Assembly: GCF_003334305.1 (NCBI RefSeq)
Contig: NZ_QOWS01000049.1
Source: Escherichia coli
Lineage (GTDB): Bacteria > Pseudomonadota > Gammaproteobacteria > Enterobacterales > Enterobacteriaceae
Strand: one strand, 5' to 3'
DNA: 6,386 nucleotides
The notes beneath the pieces are model-generated. The model did no database searches. It was given only the letters and a program-made list of their open reading frames with translations, and was not told the origin of the DNA. Of this stretch, positions 63-6,139 are shown piece by piece (within the stretch, counting starts at the first letter, position 1; each line of letters begins with the position of its first letter). Made by a program: the position numbers and the translations under genes.

Positions 63-77
63 GTTGGAGTCATTACC
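1..77 (+). mobile_element. IS1 insertion sequence, right end only (element continues upstream of the window)
   Basis: Nt 1-77 match, from my memory of IS1, the last ~77 bp of the element in canonical orientation (AATCGGTGGAGCTGCATGACAAAGTCATCGGGCATTATCTGAACATAAAACACTATCAATAAGTTGGAGTCATTACC), ending with the right terminal inverted repeat at 55-77. Not verified by search. Confidence 0.85.
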
Positions 78-735
78 GTGCACGGTAACGGGCCATATCA
101 ATGAGCAGTTCCTCTCCAATTTTATTTGCCCCTAGAGAGCGGCGAGTTTTCTTCACTTCAATGACAATCTTCTCTTTCTTCAGAAGAAAATCCTGTCTGG
201 ATGATGAACCTGCGAAGCTAGGTGAATTTTCTTCAGGTCTGACATCATTAAAATGCAGCAGCAGAAGAGCATGAACAAGATCCTGTACATCATACTCGTC
301 ATTAATTTCAAGCGGCGTTCTGTCATTGTATCGTTGCTTTAATTGACGACAAAAAGCTGGAAATTTATTGAGTATATTTATAATCAAATCCAGTTCGGCA
401 TGTTTTGTTGCTATAGTCGATGCCGTGCCGGAGTAAGTTAAATCGTCTCTGGCTGCATCAAAAATAGGTTTGTAATGTCTAACCAATCCCTGATAATTAC
501 TAGACCAAGCAATCCTTTGTGTATCATTAAAATCTTTGTAGTAATCAGATTCCTTTCCATAACTGTCTTCAAGTAACTTTTTTGCTCTTGCAATCCAGTT
601 ATTACCTTTAGCCGAATCAATATATTCCTGGCTTCTGTGACTAAATGCACTTGTTCCCATATATTTTGTCGACATGACAGAATTGTACTCTTGTTCAAGC
701 ACTTCAAATCTTTCAGCTAAGGTCTTCTTCGTCAT
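73..735 (-). CDS. Hypothetical protein with a C-terminal PD-(D/E)xK-like nuclease motif; 3' end created by the IS1 junction, so probably truncated
   Basis: ORF track frame 73..747 (-). Position 747 is a TTG; the first ATG is at 735 (MTKKTLAERFE...), giving about 220 aa. The C-terminal region reads EYDVQDLVHALLLLHF ... SSSRQDFLLKKEKIVIEVKK: an acidic helix, a D in a hydrophobic strand, then E-V-K 11 residues later, the arrangement expected for a PD-(D/E)xK core (motif-level inference only). The last sense codon and the TAA stop (73-75) overlap the IS1 terminus, which ends at 77. Confidence 0.55.
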   Translation of the reverse strand: MTKKTLAERFEVLEQEYNSVMSTKYMGTSAFSHRSQEYIDSAKGNNWIARAKKLLEDSYGKESDYYKDFNDTQRIAWSSNYQGLVRHYKPIFDAARDDLTYSGTASTIATKHAELDLIINILNKFPAFCRQLKQRYNDRTPLEINDEYDVQDLVHALLLLHFNDVRPEENSPSFAGSSSRQDFLLKKEKIVIEVKKTRRSLGANKIGEELLIDMARYRAR

Positions 736-811
736 AGCGCAATCCAAATTATATGCTAATAATACCTGTGAATTTTAATATTCTACCATATCTGGCTTTC
801 TTCCGTTCACA

Positions 812-2258: not shown

Positions 2259-2284
2259 CTGGACATTCAGGTAAAAAAGTCCAA
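2259..2284. repeat. Dyad-symmetric motif copy 3 (CTGGACATTCAGGTAAAAAAGTCCAA), fused to the terminator stem
   Basis: TGGAC (2260-2264) / GTCCA (2279-2283). The right half-site is also the 5' arm of the terminator hairpin at 2278-2304. Confidence 0.55.
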
Positions 2285-2358
2285 CTGGTGAGGTTGGGCT
2301 TTTTGGCTTTCCGGTTCTGTTGGTGGCTATGACCGGAGAAAATTGCTCTACACCTAAC
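2273..2358 (-). ncRNA. Candidate small RNA, orphan paralog of the antisense RNA at 4727..4814
   Basis: Homologous to 4727-4814 along its length: the same terminator architecture, the same internal hairpin (TCCGGT ... ACCGGA), and a conserved -10 (TAAAAT on the minus strand, plus-strand 2365-2370). The predicted 5' seed is different (GUAGAGCAAUUUUCUCC versus GUAGAGUGACUUCCUCC). No adjacent toxin gene, and no target found in the window. Confidence 0.4.
2278..2304. terminator. Bidirectional rho-independent terminator (A-tract / 8-bp stem / 7-nt loop / T-tract)
   Basis: AGTCCAAC (2278-2285) pairs with GTTGGGCT (2293-2300), with one G-U pair. The loop is TGGTGAG. A5 lies upstream and T5 downstream, so it reads as stem plus U-tract on both strands. 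It serves the 1772..2221 ORF on the plus strand and the sRNA candidate on the minus strand. Confidence 0.6.
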
Positions 2359-2393: not shown

Positions 2394-2429
2394 CGCCTTT
2401 AACGCCTTTAACGCCTTTAACGCCTTTAA
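2394..2429. repeat. Perfect tandem repeat, 4 copies of the 9-bp unit CGCCTTTAA
   Basis: Direct reading: the unit CGCCTTTAA occurs at 2394, 2403, 2412 and 2421, followed by G6. It occupies the -35/upstream position of the sRNA candidate promoter at 2365-2370. Confidence 0.9.
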
Positions 2430-2798
2430 GGGGGGAAGATAGAGCAACTCACCGATGATGAATAAAGTGGACGAAGAGACGATAACTACACTCCCATCCA
2501 GGGGGGGGCTTTTTTTGTGGTACTGTAGTGTGGGAGTAAGTTCGGGTCTCATATTGAATGAGGCGATTGCGAGCTGCCTTTCATCGAAAACTAATGTCCA
2601 TTGTCATTGTATTGTCTGACTCTATCTCGTAACAAGTCTTTGACACAAAGTTTTATATTTTTATCAAAGTGGACATGAGGGGAATTAAATTTGTGATCTT
2701 TTTCAAATAATGTGTTCTTGATAGTAGATTCTGGTTAGTGATATCTATTAACAATATATTAAATTTCTTTTGTATTATCGCTGATAAAACTACTGTAT

Positions 2799-2837: not shown

Positions 2838-4340
2838 ATGAAGAAATTTTATCAATTTAGGGATGAACAGCGAAAGGAGCTTGAACAACATGATTTTTAT
2901 AGTTTGATTTCTTCAGATTGTATAGCGTTGAAAGACAAACTATTATTTGCTCCTGTTATGGCTCATTTCATAATGAACTTCAGAGACATGAATAAATGGG
3001 TTATCAGGTTTGATAACAATGATAATGAATATAAATCTGTTATAAACGGTGGAACAATCGAGGATGAAACACATTCAAGATTGTTTCTGGAAGACTGGAG
3101 GAAACTATATATAGATGACAAACTTAACTGGAAAGCAAGTGATGTTATATACTGGTTGTTTATTAGTCGAGAAATGGAGTGTTTCCGAAAATTTGGTATT
3201 GATTTTATGAGACTTTGTGTAGATGATGGAGGAGACCCAATACTTCGATATTCTCACTCCGAGTCAGGAGAAACTTGCGGTAATATATTCTTTTCAAGAA
3301 TTAGTCCTATTGCTGATCAAGTTGCCAATCATTTGGGAATATCACTCCGTTATTTTGGAACATTTCACCTTAATCTTGAAAATGGACATGTATGGAAGTC
3401 AGAAGGTGTTTTTGAAAATATAGAGTTGTCACCAGATTCTTATAAGAAAATGGCTACTCTATCAAAGAGAATGTTTGATATATTTGAAGGAATTCATGAC
3501 TCTTTTTATAATTACCTGTCCAGTTATGTTCTTAATGGAAGTCATCCGTCATTTTTTGAATCATTACCTGTAGGGAAAAATGTTGCACCTATATACCCTG
3601 AATTTGTGATAGAAAACAAAAGCCATAACGATGGTAGACATATTGAACATATAAACAATTACCTGGAAAAAATATCGAGTCATGAGTTCTTTAAATGGCT
3701 GGTTAACACCTCAATAGACCCTCAATTGAAATTGAAAAGTTTCATACCTCTTTGGATTGTTGATATTATGGGGTATAGAGATATTAATAAATATGTTTTT
3801 ACATATGAACAGCCTGAATCAGAAAGTGAAAAGATTATAAATGATTATGCATTACACTTGTCAGAGCATAGCCGTTTATTTTATCATGACTGGAAGTCAC
3901 TTCAACTTGATGATATGTTACGTTGGAGTGCCAGTGATACTCTTGAGTTTATTTTTCTTAATTCAGATATGGATATGCATAGAGAAAATATAGTTAAGTT
4001 TTCTTTGTTCGGATTAAAACACAGAGATCCTGTTATCAGGTTCTGGTTTATGATGATACTGGAGTTAAGTGGAAAAGAATTTTTCTCTCATGTTGGAGAT
4101 ATAGCTTTACAGGTGGAAAGTAAATATAATATTTATCTCCCATATTTATGTGGACGCCATGCAACAGAAAATGAGCATGAAGCATATAATAATATGTATG
4201 AGCATTTTATGGTAAAGGAACTTAGCCCTGAACAAAGTGATCTAATAATACAAATTACAGACATGGTTATGCGGTCATTATTGAATAATTTGGATATCTC
4301 ATATCGATATGTAGTAAATAATTTATTGGCAGCTCGTTAG
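2838..4340 (+). CDS. Hypothetical 500-aa protein made of two homologous ~220-aa halves; function unknown
   Basis: Long ORF with a strong AGGAG Shine-Dalgarno site, its own AT-rich promoter region and its own terminator. The two halves share ETHSRLFLEDWRKLYIDDKLNWKASD versus EHSRLFYHDWKSLQLDDMLRWSASD, FRDMNKWV versus YRDINKYV, and a later ELSP motif. No signal peptide or TM helix is apparent. Codon usage is strongly AT-biased compared with the flanking sequence. Confidence 0.8.
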   Translation: MKKFYQFRDEQRKELEQHDFYSLISSDCIALKDKLLFAPVMAHFIMNFRDMNKWVIRFDNNDNEYKSVINGGTIEDETHSRLFLEDWRKLYIDDKLNWKASDVIYWLFISREMECFRKFGIDFMRLCVDDGGDPILRYSHSESGETCGNIFFSRISPIADQVANHLGISLRYFGTFHLNLENGHVWKSEGVFENIELSPDSYKKMATLSKRMFDIFEGIHDSFYNYLSSYVLNGSHPSFFESLPVGKNVAPIYPEFVIENKSHNDGRHIEHINNYLEKISSHEFFKWLVNTSIDPQLKLKSFIPLWIVDIMGYRDINKYVFTYEQPESESEKIINDYALHLSEHSRLFYHDWKSLQLDDMLRWSASDTLEFIFLNSDMDMHRENIVKFSLFGLKHRDPVIRFWFMMILELSGKEFFSHVGDIALQVESKYNIYLPYLCGRHATENEHEAYNNMYEHFMVKELSPEQSDLIIQITDMVMRSLLNNLDISYRYVVNNLLAAR

Positions 4341-4645: not shown

Positions 4646-4726
4646 CATCGACCGCAACAAAAAAACTGAAAGAGAAAGCCCCTCAAATGAGGGAGAAAAA
4701 AAGGAAGTGCAGTCAACGAGAGGCGT

Positions 4727-4814
4727 AAAAAACCCGACTGGTGAGGTCGGGTTTTAATACGGTTCCGGTTCTGAGTTGGTGGCTCTGACCGGAGGAAGTC
4801 ACTCTACACCTAAC
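4727..4814 (-). ncRNA. Candidate antisense small RNA (type I antitoxin-like), divergent from the 31-aa peptide gene
   Basis: Minus-strand promoter: TTGCAA (4844-4849), 17-bp spacer, TAAAAT (plus-strand 4821-4826). The predicted start is near 4814. The terminator is stem CCCGAC (4733-4738) / GTCGGG (4746-4751) with loop TGGTGAG and a U6 run on the minus strand. The first 24 nt (complement of 4791-4814) pair with plus-strand 5026-5049 in the peptide mRNA leader (23 Watson-Crick pairs plus one G-U). Confidence 0.5.
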
Positions 4815-4820
4815 GTTTAC

Positions 4821-4849
4821 ATTTTATGCACTCAGCCGCAGTATTGCAA
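4821..4849 (-). promoter_or_regulatory. Candidate sigma70 promoter of the antisense RNA (-35 TTGCAA, -10 TAAAAT, 17-bp spacer)
   Basis: Read on the minus strand: TTGCAA, then TACTGCGGCTGAGTGCA, then TAAAAT. Confidence 0.45.
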
Positions 4850-4903
4850 CTAACTGTGGTTAAGGCACCACATTTAGTTGTGTATCGTGGGTTTTATATA
4901 CCT

Positions 4904-4909
4904 TATAAT
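4904..4909 (+). promoter_or_regulatory. Candidate -10 (TATAAT) for the peptide mRNA, implying a leader of about 210 nt
   Basis: Consensus TATAAT at 4904-4909 with an AT-rich upstream region; the -35 is poor. It is divergent from the antisense RNA promoter, about 55 bp away. Confidence 0.3.
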
Positions 4910-5025
4910 CATGAAGTTAGCCGTGTGGTGTGGCTTCTTCCTCTGCCCTTCCCGTTTATGCAGGTATGAACGATTTTAAAGTCCTGGCTGAACAAACAGG
5001 TGGTGCTGTGTTTAGTGCTCTGGCA

Positions 5026-5049
5026 GGAGGAAGTCACTCTGCACCTAAC
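5026..5049 (+). promoter_or_regulatory. Predicted antisense RNA target site in the peptide mRNA leader
   Basis: GGAGGAAGTCACTCTGCACCTAAC (5026-5049) differs at one position (A to G) from plus-strand 4791-4814, so it is complementary to the 5' end of the minus-strand RNA with one G-U wobble. Confidence 0.5.
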
Positions 5050-5102
5050 AATGCGAGAGAACCGTTGTGACAGGCAGTGTAAGAGCAAGCAACGGTGATT
5101 TC

Positions 5103-5119
5103 CTCCAGTTTTACTGGAG
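5103..5119 (+). promoter_or_regulatory. Hairpin sequestering the Shine-Dalgarno sequence of the peptide gene
   Basis: CTCCAG (5103-5108), loop TTTTA, CTGGAG (5114-5119). The SD GGAG (5116-5119) is inside the 3' arm. TTCCTCC at 5100-5106 could alternatively pair with GGAGGAA at 5026-5032. Confidence 0.4.
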
Positions 5120-5125
5120 AAACGG

Positions 5126-5221
5126 ATGATTAATCTGTTAATCATCGTTCTCAGGGCTGTGGTCGCCGTTGCAAACGCGCTGATTGCAATTCTGGAACTG
5201 ATTCGCCAGTTCATCGACTGA
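5126..5221 (+). CDS. 31-aa hydrophobic peptide, type I toxin-like (MINLLIIVLRAVVAVANALIAILELIRQFID)
   Basis: ATG at 5126 with GGAG 6 nt upstream. An in-frame stop lies upstream at 5096-5098, so this is the first possible start. The peptide has one predicted TM helix and a charged C-terminus. A near-identical paralog is at 6044..6139. It is not in the ORF track, which lists only the antisense frame 4909..5214. Confidence 0.6.
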   Translation: MINLLIIVLRAVVAVANALIAILELIRQFID

Positions 5222-5446
5222 TGACAGCGGAAACGTAACTAAGGACAGGAAGTGAACCGCTTCCTGCCCTTTAACATACTGTGATATTTTTCAAAAAAAC
5301 TCACCAATATTCTCCTCGGCAGAAATGACATAACTCACTGTAAAATAACAAATCATCTAAACGCCAGCTTTGTATTGAGCGCGTTGGCCAACGCCTTTAT
5401 CAGCTGCGACCGCACCAGATAATTTGAATAAGATTTCCCGCATCAC

Positions 5447-5472
5447 CTGGACATACAGGTTATTCTGTCCAT
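5447..5472. repeat. Dyad-symmetric motif copy 4 (CTGGACATACAGGTTATTCTGTCCAT)
   Basis: TGGACA (5449-5454) / TGTCCA (5466-5471), with an inner dyad ACCTG ... CAGGT. It lies in the spacer between the two peptide units. Confidence 0.6.
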
Positions 5473-5764: not shown

Positions 5765-5905
5765 ATTTCACGTAGCGTACCGTCGATACTGTATCCATCA
5801 ACAAATGACTATTTTTTGAATGTGTCATTTCCTGTAACCTACTGAAAAATATCAGTGAATGACAATATCGGCGACAGCATCGGAGCTGATAGCCAGTTTC
5901 CTGAA
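5765..5905. repeat. Repeat block U, copy B (homologous to 4505-4645)
   Basis: Same anchors as copy A. It is preceded by a candidate -10 (CATAAT, 5689-5694) and followed by the hairpin at 5994-6032. Confidence 0.55.
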
Positions 5906-5993
5906 TGCATATGGCCAGAACAGTAAATTTGAACCAGGTTCTCACGTCACCAGGCGACGTGTCTGGGAAACTGGTGAACAACAGGCACAGAAA

Positions 5994-6032
5994 AGCCCAA
6001 CTTTATGGGGGTCAGTTCAGTGAGGTTGGGCT
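5994..6032. terminator. Hairpin homologous to the sRNA terminators (8-bp stem, enlarged 23-nt loop), directly upstream of the second peptide gene
   Basis: AGCCCAAC (5994-6001) pairs perfectly with GTTGGGCT (6025-6032). The loop ends in TCAGTGAG, compared with TGGTGAG in the other copies. On the plus strand, A4 lies upstream and no U tract follows. Confidence 0.45.
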
Positions 6033-6043
6033 AAGAGAAACGA

Positions 6044-6139
6044 ATGATTAACCTGTTAATCATCATTCTCAGGGATGTGGTCGCCGTTGCAAACGCGCGG
6101 ATTGCAGTTCTGGAACTGATTCGCCAGTTCATCGTTTGA
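6044..6139 (+). CDS. Second copy of the 31-aa peptide (MINLLIIILRDVVAVANARIAVLELIRQFIV), possibly degenerate
   Basis: ATG at 6044 with a weaker ribosome-binding site (AAGAG). It differs from copy 1 at 7 nt (V8I, A11D, L19R, I22V, D31V, one synonymous), and two of these put charged residues in the hydrophobic core. It lacks the sRNA, promoter and leader block present upstream of copy 1. Confidence 0.45.
   Translation: MINLLIIILRDVVAVANARIAVLELIRQFIV

Follow-up and report, generated by a model that had tools for sequence, protein, structure and literature searches.

A plasmid-borne dqlB gene of Escherichia coli with a probable dinQ-type RNA switch in its 5' leader

The dinQ/agrB family and the dqlB locus

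The dinQ/agrAB system of the Escherichia coli chromosome, whose transcripts and +44 form were mapped by Weel-Sneve et al. in 2013 (PMC3567139), is controlled by the folding of its own messenger. In the dinQ leader, four elements pair as 1:2 and 3:4 in the inert +1 RNA and as 2:3 in the active +44 RNA, accompanied by the stem-loops SL2 and SL4 and by an a/a' helix, and the binding of the small RNA (sRNA) AgrB re-closes the hairpin that holds the Shine-Dalgarno (SD) sequence and triggers cleavage by RNase III (PMC5066626). The dql genes, defined by Kristiansen et al. in 2016, have leaders with the architecture of the dinQ 5' untranslated region (UTR) (PMC5066626), and the dqlB-agrB homologues of the plasmids pOXA-48 and pOXA-484 were found in 2025 to be toxic, to be neutralised by AgrB through pairing in the 5' UTR, and to stabilise their plasmids (PMC12365149, PMC12317039). 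The present analysis concerns positions 4904-5125 of a 6,386-nucleotide (nt) stretch of E. coli DNA (contig NZ_QOWS01000049.1), the whole of which is referred to as the window. With a probability of roughly 0.85, these positions comprise the -10 box and the 210-nt 5' UTR of dqlB, a plasmid-borne gene whose product is a type I toxin resembling DinQ, and form an RNA switch of the dinQ type.

The locus itself is an already described and annotated member of the dinQ/agrB (dql) family of type I toxin-antitoxin systems. The window is 99.8% identical to pMS7163A, a plasmid of E. coli on which RefSeq records the peptide as dqlB, and homologues of the leader plus the open reading frame (ORF) are present in at least 5000 plasmid records of PLSDB, the majority being conjugative plasmids of Escherichia, Klebsiella, and Salmonella. 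The 31-codon ORF is hydrophobic. Over all 31 residues, its product scores 72.4 bits (cutoff 35) with the NCBIfam family NF041473, named for the DinQ-like toxin DqlB of type I, while its score for NF041472 (DinQ), 25.1 bits, lies under the cutoff of 30. Together with the DqlB peptide, the other traits of the dql family were found here, namely a divergent AgrB upstream, complementarity to the target, a leader homologous to that of dinQ, a sigma-70 promoter with a perfect -10 box but a weak -35, and a Rho-independent terminator. By analogy with the pOXA-48 and pOXA-484 homologues, this DqlB allele would be toxic and would be neutralised by its AgrB. The dqlB-agrB pair is found on thousands of conjugative resistance plasmids, and its role in addiction has been demonstrated on plasmids of the pOXA-48 type; the correct annotation of the leader, rather than of a spurious upstream ORF, matters both for plasmid annotation and for curing strategies that supply or block AgrB.

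The window was aligned with 19 dqlB loci (IncX1/3/4/5, IncI/K, IncL/M, IncN, IncF, and IncHI2), with a plasmid-borne dinQ, and with the chromosomal dinQ, using a dinQ numbering that reproduces the published landmarks (UUUU at U16-U19 and the SD at G184-G187). When projected through this alignment, all of the dinQ elements of Kristiansen et al. map onto the leader (Table 1). The GU at +1, the a/a' helix, element 1, SL1, SL2, the AgrB site with element 2, SL4, element 3, and the SD hairpin align between the two systems, which also share a divergent AgrB with approximately 33 nt of complementarity and a short single-helix toxin with a common ELIR motif. On the other hand, the promoter of the window has a -10 box of TATAAT rather than TATGAT and is not associated with a LexA box, and, given the lack of this box, the locus is dqlB and not dinQ. 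The leader is also longer than the 194 nt of dinQ, with the extra length found in the variable 5' part and in SL1, and the toxin starts at an ATG and has 31 amino acids, whereas that of dinQ starts at a GTG and has 27. The locus is, in addition, plasmid-borne, and its second AgrB-like gene lies 2.4 kb away, rather than in the adjacent position that is found in dinQ.

Table 1. Positions of the features of the dqlB-agrB locus and of its second copies in the window
Feature	Position	Strand	Remarks
Second AgrB-like gene (orphan)	2271-2357	-	Rfam, 46 bits
AgrB antitoxin sRNA gene	4725-4814	-	pairs with the leader through its 5' end; closed by a terminator hairpin
dqlB -10 box TATAAT	4904-4909	+	weak -35, TGTATC 4881-4886
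dqlB 5' untranslated leader	4916-5125	+	210 nt; putative start at G4916
Stem S1, 5' strand	4916-4947	+	pairs with 5023-5049 in the minimum-free-energy fold; holds a (4916-4920) and element 1; would lock the AgrB site and element 2
Element 1	4931-4948	+	projected from dinQ
SL1 hairpin	4953-4972	+	aligns to dinQ SL1 G32-C43; 3' arm carries the AUG of the upstream ORF
Upstream ORF	4966-5070	+	34 codons; non-conserved frame, apparently due to chance
Putative equivalent of the dinQ +44 cut site	T4974	+	dinQ U44 aligns there
SL2 stem-loop	4987-5016	+	conserved; maps to dinQ G57-U87
AgrB target site	5017-5049	+	includes element 2 (5023-5035) and a' (5045-5049); maps to dinQ G88-A119
Element 2	5023-5035	+	projected from dinQ; 5026-5035 pairs with element 3
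SL4	about 5055-5102	+	5060-5098 as projected from dinQ; core 5061-5068 paired with 5089-5096; invariant loop GUGACAGGC contains the TGA of the upstream ORF
Element 3	about 5097-5109	+	5097-5106, or 5098-5109 as projected from dinQ; joined to element 2 (5026-5035) when the SD is open and to element 4, as the SD hairpin, when it is closed
SD-sequestering hairpin (3:4)	5103-5109 with 5113-5119	+	element 4 / SD 5113-5119; SD GGAG 5116-5119
dqlB toxin ORF	5126-5221	+	31 amino acids, MINLLIIVLRAVVAVANALIAILELIRQFID; RefSeq WP_000609147.1
dqlB terminator hairpin	5242-5271	+	conserved in the alignment with compensatory changes; also in the fold; flagged on the minus strand too
Second dqlB copy	6044-6139	+	RefSeq WP_000609144.1; NF041473, 58 bits; annotated toxin gene

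The leader and its predicted conformations

An earlier note on this DNA had pointed to a TATAAT at 4904-4909 and to a structured leader of approximately 210 nt that would follow if transcription starts behind it. The hexamer is present there. In the same column of the alignment, each of the 19 dqlB loci has TATAAT or TATACT, and the plasmid-borne dinQ has TATAAT, whereas the TATGAT of the chromosomal dinQ is embedded in a LexA box. In the alignment, G4916, seven nt past the -10 box, faces the mapped +1 of dinQ (GUUGG...), which sets the leader at exactly 210 nt if this copy is transcribed from the same base, as the alignment suggests; G1 and U2 are invariant in the 19 leaders. A terminator-like hairpin, TGTGGTTAAGGCACCACA followed by TTTAGTT, is found at 4855-4872(+), between the agrB promoter and the -10 box of dqlB, and is conserved in the IncX4 relatives; it might act as an insulator of dqlB against read-through transcription.

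AgrB was recognised by the full Rfam model RF02891 at 4725-4813(-), its 64 bits exceeding the gathering score of 40, and a promoter-like TTGCAA-17-TAAAAT on the minus strand (4849-4821) precedes it. When 4700-5300 was scanned permissively with Rfam, AgrB alone was returned, plus a sub-threshold match of OrzO-P to the terminator hairpin. A divergent AgrB lies upstream of the toxin gene in 13 of the 17 homologous loci that were scanned, and in a fourteenth (L017 of the alignment) AgrB is found downstream of the toxin. The complementarity between AgrB and the leader extends over 33 nt at 5017-5049, with 30 Watson-Crick pairs, two G.U pairs, and one mismatch, and the duplex has an energy of -65 kcal/mol (-65.3). 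The 24-nt sRNA target of the earlier note (5026-5049; GGAGGAAGTCACTCTGCACCTAAC), which repeats 4791-4814 and is complementary to the 5' end of AgrB with one G.U, is the uninterrupted core of this site, and a direct repeat links 4767-4814 to 5002-5049. The target was rightly placed far upstream of the toxin start, given that it ends 76 nt 5' of the ATG and 66 nt 5' of the SD. In the homologous loci, the cognate duplexes range from -48 to -69 kcal/mol, with 11 of 14 at -56 or stronger, and the cognate AgrB is the best or tied-best partner for its own leader in 10 of 14.

The orphan AgrB-like gene, 2.4 kb from the toxin gene, has three extra mismatches to the 5017-5049 site in its 5' region (-46.8 versus -65.3 kcal/mol) and pairs with all 14 sampled leaders at -29 to -48 kcal/mol, more weakly than any cognate AgrB; no target was identified for it in these duplex tests. 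Its homology to the promoter of the first agrB stops after the -10 box, and the orphan is an agrA-like or decaying copy.

The leader is not only long but structured, given that the region 4916-5128 folds at a minimum free energy of -78.2 kcal/mol, versus -62.4 +/- 4.6 kcal/mol in shuffled sequences (z = -3.43; none of 200 was as stable). The unconstrained fold contains S1, SL1, SL4, and the SD hairpin; this hairpin had been seen in the earlier note as closing the leader, and it does enclose the GGAG, six nt before the ATG at 5126. The S1 duplex of the window alone reaches -38.4 kcal/mol, versus -18.8 kcal/mol in shuffles (z = -5.9).

Three states may be distinguished on this basis, for which the pairing probabilities are given as ranges over five choices of 3' end, across which they were stable. 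In the full-length transcript, the first 32 or so nt (4916-4947) would pair with 5023-5049 to form S1, hiding the AgrB target and holding element 2, and element 3, being free, would pair with element 4 and close the GGAG, giving a stable but untranslatable mRNA. The +1 RNA is accordingly predicted to be inert, with P(3:4) of 0.87-0.97, P(2:3) of 0.00, and an SD that is unpaired at 0.00-0.03. The loss of the 5' strand in the processed transcript, by a cut near 4974 if it follows dinQ, would free element 2 (5026-5035) to capture element 3, which may open the SD hairpin and allow DqlB to be made; for the RNA from 4974, P(3:4) falls to 0.12-0.32, P(2:3) rises to 0.78-0.92, and the SD is unpaired at 0.19-0.44. 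When 5017-5049 of this shorter RNA is blocked as if bound by AgrB, which would withdraw element 2, the SD hairpin is predicted to re-form, with P(3:4) of 0.96-0.97 and both P(2:3) and the unpaired SD at 0.00, and the AgrB/leader duplex would probably be cut by RNase III.

The folding thus reproduces the three published states of dinQ with only these constraints imposed, and a scan of 5' ends placed the flip of the switch between 4934 and 4946, precisely where element 1 is lost; the switch has flipped once the 5' end passes approximately 4940-4946, and the SD is open with 5' ends at 4946 or beyond. Around the putative cut, ACGA|UUUU at 4970-4977 would fit the RN|WUU preference of RNase E, which makes this enzyme a tentative candidate. 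The earlier note had mentioned long leaders that need either processing or standby ribosome loading. Activation probably depends on 5' processing, and the mechanism published for dinQ is a four-element RNA switch rather than ribosome standby (PMC5066626). Following the loss of the plasmid, the pool of labile AgrB would decay, DqlB would be made, and the cell would be killed, i.e., post-segregational killing. The start, the cut site, the nuclease, and the activity of the toxin in this copy are taken by analogy from the homologues, in which the inert +1 and active +44 forms, the action of AgrB and RNase III, and the addiction by dqlB-agrB have been shown (PMC5066626, PMC3567139, PMC12365149, PMC12317039), whereas the computations made here showed the homology and the covariation, mapped the elements, and predicted the three states.

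The comparative evidence bears on both conformations. RNAalifold, applied to the MAFFT alignment, recovered SL2, SL4, and the SD hairpin in the consensus, with compensatory changes at 19 pairs, such as 81:109 in SL2, where CG is replaced by UA in four sequences. Stem S1 was not recovered by this method because the 5' 45 or so nt are too variable to be aligned, and it was therefore assessed through per-sequence duplex tests against shuffles and an explicit count of the a/a' pairs. The first 36 nt pair with the region of the AgrB site beyond shuffles in 19 of 19 leaders (z from -2.9 to -5.9, with the window the strongest), despite the differing sequences of their 5' ends. For a/a', SL2, SL4, and the SD hairpin taken together, 92.2% of the cells are paired, versus 32-55% in slid controls, with 16 pairs changed on both sides and none of 500 shuffles reaching the observed values; the a/a' pairs covary, 8 of the 12 pairs of SL4 have changes on both sides, and compensatory changes are found in 5 of the 7 pairs of the SD hairpin. 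The competing 2:3 helix is paired in 86.3% of the cells (41-67% in slid controls), with five double-change pairs and a covariation score of 0.458 (0.15-0.32 in the controls). In the 19 homologues, covariation hence supports both of the alternative conformations.

A number of points weigh against this interpretation. The covariation controls are biased toward a structure derived from the window, which is itself one of those aligned, and phylogeny links the 19 sequences to one another. The promoter at 4904 was not called in a consensus promoter scan, given its poor -35, and a search of the literature for a mapped start or processing site of any dqlB leader found none. After truncation, the SD stays closed in silico in the IncX4, the IncX3, and some other leaders, and even in dinQ, where opening has been demonstrated experimentally, the predicted unpaired SD moves only from 0.11 to 0.18. 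Given this inconsistency across homologues, the thermodynamic prediction alone is weak evidence for the open state, and the per-homologue predictions of SD opening were set aside as comparative evidence.

The comparison with other described systems helps to place the predicted switch. The dqlB-agrB loci of pOXA-48 (IncL) and pOXA-484 (IncX3) belong to the dqlB family as well and are arranged in the same way, with a 35-nt pairing of AgrB in the 5' UTR (PMC12365149, PMC12317039), but they share approximately 72-79% DNA identity with the leader and ORF of the window, and their AgrB-site sequences differ, so that these plasmids and the window probably do not cross-neutralise one another; the start, processing, and leader structure are unmapped in those studies (PMC12365149, PMC12317039).

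The earlier note had turned instead to tisB and zorO, and the parallel holds for the long processed leaders and the distant antisense pairing, given that tisB/istR-1 and zorO/orzO have long 5' UTRs that are inert at full length and active after 5' processing, and antitoxins that pair far upstream of the SD. These systems are only analogues, however, and not homologous to the leader of the window, whose direct homologue is dinQ/agrB. In tisB, a standby site is occluded by the sRNA, and the SD is closed after processing (PMC5066626), whereas a helix-exchange switch is predicted in the window, where the SD of the truncated RNA is partly open (0.19-0.44), while being closed in silico in several homologues; on these predictions, some contribution of ribosome standby is conceivable. 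The hok/sok/mok system of plasmid R1 is similar in that it is a plasmid addiction system with a stable, inert full-length mRNA, a long-range fold-back, activation by processing, and a labile antisense RNA. In this case, however, the 5' and 3' ends of the messenger pair to form the lock, which opens upon 3' trimming, and Sok acts through the overlapping mok frame, whereas the upstream ORF of the window neither overlaps the toxin ORF nor is conserved.

The upstream reading frame and other explanations

This upstream ORF runs from the ATG at 4966-4968 to the TGA at 5068-5070 and encodes MNDFKVLAEQTGGAVFSALAGGSHSAPNNAREPL, exactly as the earlier note had it, and it spans the whole of the AgrB target site. 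That note had also suspected that the frame might go untranslated for want of a good ribosome-binding site, which is in keeping with an anti-SD pairing of -3.1 kcal/mol that abuts the ATG, versus -6.4 kcal/mol at the proper spacing for the toxin. If it were nonetheless translated and regulated the toxin, ribosomes might cover the AgrB site or remodel the leader, as a leader peptide would or as mok does in hok/sok, and some observations are compatible with this. The aligned codon is ATG in 14 of the 21 leaders, the ORF covers the entire AgrB site, the frame enters the toxin ORF in two loci (L015 and L019), one of which is annotated as a coding sequence in GenBank, and a standby contribution in dinQ was left possible by Kristiansen et al. 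(PMC5066626). The remaining leaders, on the other hand, have other codons at this position (ATA in dinQ, GTG in the pOXA-48-type leaders, AAG in L016, and ACT or ATT elsewhere), and neither the frame, nor its length, nor its stop is conserved. In the closest relatives shown (IncX4: L003, L006, and L007), a TAA at codon 10 ends the frame after nine codons; L004 and L011 are frameshifted, L010 has no ORF of at least 10 codons, and only L012 encodes a similar peptide, for the first 23 residues. The indels across this stretch are mostly of 1-2 nt, and the mean pairwise differences by codon position are flat (0.268/0.261/0.288), whereas those of the toxin ORF have a strong periodicity (0.148/0.021/0.347). 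The length of the ORF is within chance as well, given that 8.4% of 5000 dinucleotide shuffles of the leader contain a full ATG ORF of 34 codons or more (p of approximately 0.08).

The position of the frame within the RNA points in the same direction. Its AUG is located in the 3' arm of SL1, with a probability of being unpaired of 0.07, and the +44-equivalent cut would fall eight nt downstream of this AUG and remove it from the active mRNA. The stop of the frame lies 55 nt before the ATG of the toxin, which rules out translational coupling. The peptide matched no NCBIfam family, and no coding sequence is annotated at this position in 25 sampled plasmids; a tblastn search with the peptide returned 1671 plasmid records, but these do not speak for coding, since stop codons do not interrupt a tblastn match, as in the IncX4-type class at 85% identity, with its TAA at codon 10. 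For the upstream ORF I of dinQ, no translation was detected and no toxicity was seen (PMC3567139); this 18-amino-acid ORF (PMC3567139) could not be placed on the E2348/69 copy, where the only find was a 10-codon ATG ORF at +30, and no positional correspondence with the ORF of the window is claimed. Given all of this, a role for the 34-codon frame finds no support, its translation as a regulator of the toxin is very unlikely, and the ORF is, by its sequence, best regarded as a chance by-product of the RNA, not translated to purpose. A lineage-specific layer reminiscent of mok or of a standby site, in which the AUG of SL1 would be used on full-length or partly processed mRNA and ribosomes over 5017-5049 would modulate the access of AgrB or the exchange between 1:2 and 2:3, seems slightly less probable still. 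The leader is thus most likely the dinQ-type switch that has already been described, and nothing calls for pursuing the upstream ORF.

A different objection would be that the leader is short and is transcribed from a promoter near 5126, the conservation further upstream being due to something else, such as a remnant of an AgrB-related duplication. The weak -35 of the promoter at 4904 would fit this proposal, and the target block, as a direct repeat of the agrB gene, might be read as a mere duplication remnant, but the consensus promoter scan found no promoter-like site on the plus strand between 4916 and 5126, many plasmid groups conserve the entire 210 nt, starting at the -10 box, compensatory pairs connect +1 with 5049 and element 3 with the SD, and the mapped +1 of dinQ aligns to 4916 (PMC3567139). 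The second dqlB copy, which truly has no leader, carries charged substitutions in its helix and looks dead, and a short leader is, overall, highly improbable. No more credence is given to SOS regulation through a LexA operator, which would make the leader relevant mainly after DNA damage, as in the chromosomal dinQ, where a LexA box overlies the -10 box (PMC3567139; visible in L002 of the alignment). While a weak LexA site (HI 11.6) has been listed for the dqlB of pTF2 (PMC12211044), no CTGT-N8-ACAG was found near 4880-4920 of the window with one mismatch allowed, and the sole hits, at 4984-4999 and 5789-5804, are within chance expectation. The pTF2 site (ACCTGTTTGTTCAGCCAGGA) is the reverse complement of the SL2 region (4984-4999 in the window) and, as it lies inside this conserved stem-loop, approximately 66 nt past the putative start and not at the promoter, it is probably an RNA-structure motif rather than an operator. 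DqlB was, moreover, undetected in the proteomics of the same paper, which therefore gives no evidence of SOS induction (PMC12211044). The dinQ-type switch in a 210-nt leader is thus the preferred reading.

The 83-amino-acid "hypothetical protein" of GenBank record CP088742.1 (L019, 404-655) is the leader read together with dqlB, and is an artefact of annotation. A 101-amino-acid antisense ORF at 4909-5214(-) was rejected as a mirror image of the toxin gene and leader; RefSeq has no annotation for it, and its only recurrence is opposite the second dqlB copy, again as a mirror.

Second dqlB copy and neighbouring features

The second dqlB copy is homologous to the first only from nine nt before the ATG (5117/6035), and thus has no leader, and its SD reads AAGAG in place of GGAG. 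The stretch directly 5' of it (upstream 5985-6043) contains a hairpin that resembles the agrB terminator, GTGAGGTTGGGCT, identical to the copy at 2290-2302, and the peptide carries A11D and L19R in its hydrophobic helix. This copy is probably a dead remnant of a deletion.

In the rest of the window, Pfam and PADLOC searches with the ORFs nearby had no outcome of relevance to the leader. A 500-amino-acid ORF at 2838-4340(+), between the two AgrB genes, corresponds to the RefSeq hypothetical protein WP_000715081.1 and has no Pfam or PADLOC match; its two halves look alike by eye, with a recurring HSRLF..DW..L..DD.L.W.ASD. The 224-amino-acid ORF at 73-747(-) matches the PADLOC model Aga_Helical-REase over residues 106-221 (E = 4e-23), whereas the RefSeq label for the region is that of a partial "malate dehydrogenase" pseudogene, and this ORF may be a mis-annotated fragment of a defence-related nuclease.

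An imperfect palindrome, TGGACA-N12-TGTCCA, is present in four copies (813-836, 1148-1171, 2260-2283, and 5448-5471), often following a CACC and overlapping ACCTG..CAGGT. These copies are located at the borders of gene modules, and one of them adjoins the terminator of the orphan agrB; related sequences occur in approximately 312 plasmids, where they are never annotated, and a strong fold is found in the 1133-1171 copy only (z = -4.8). Finally, a tandem run of four units, (A/C)GCCTTTAA (...TTAACGCCTTTAACGCCTTTAACGCCTTTAAGG), lies at 2396-2434(+), just past the promoter region of the orphan agrB, and its motif resembles the GCCCTTTAAC tail of the dqlB terminators.

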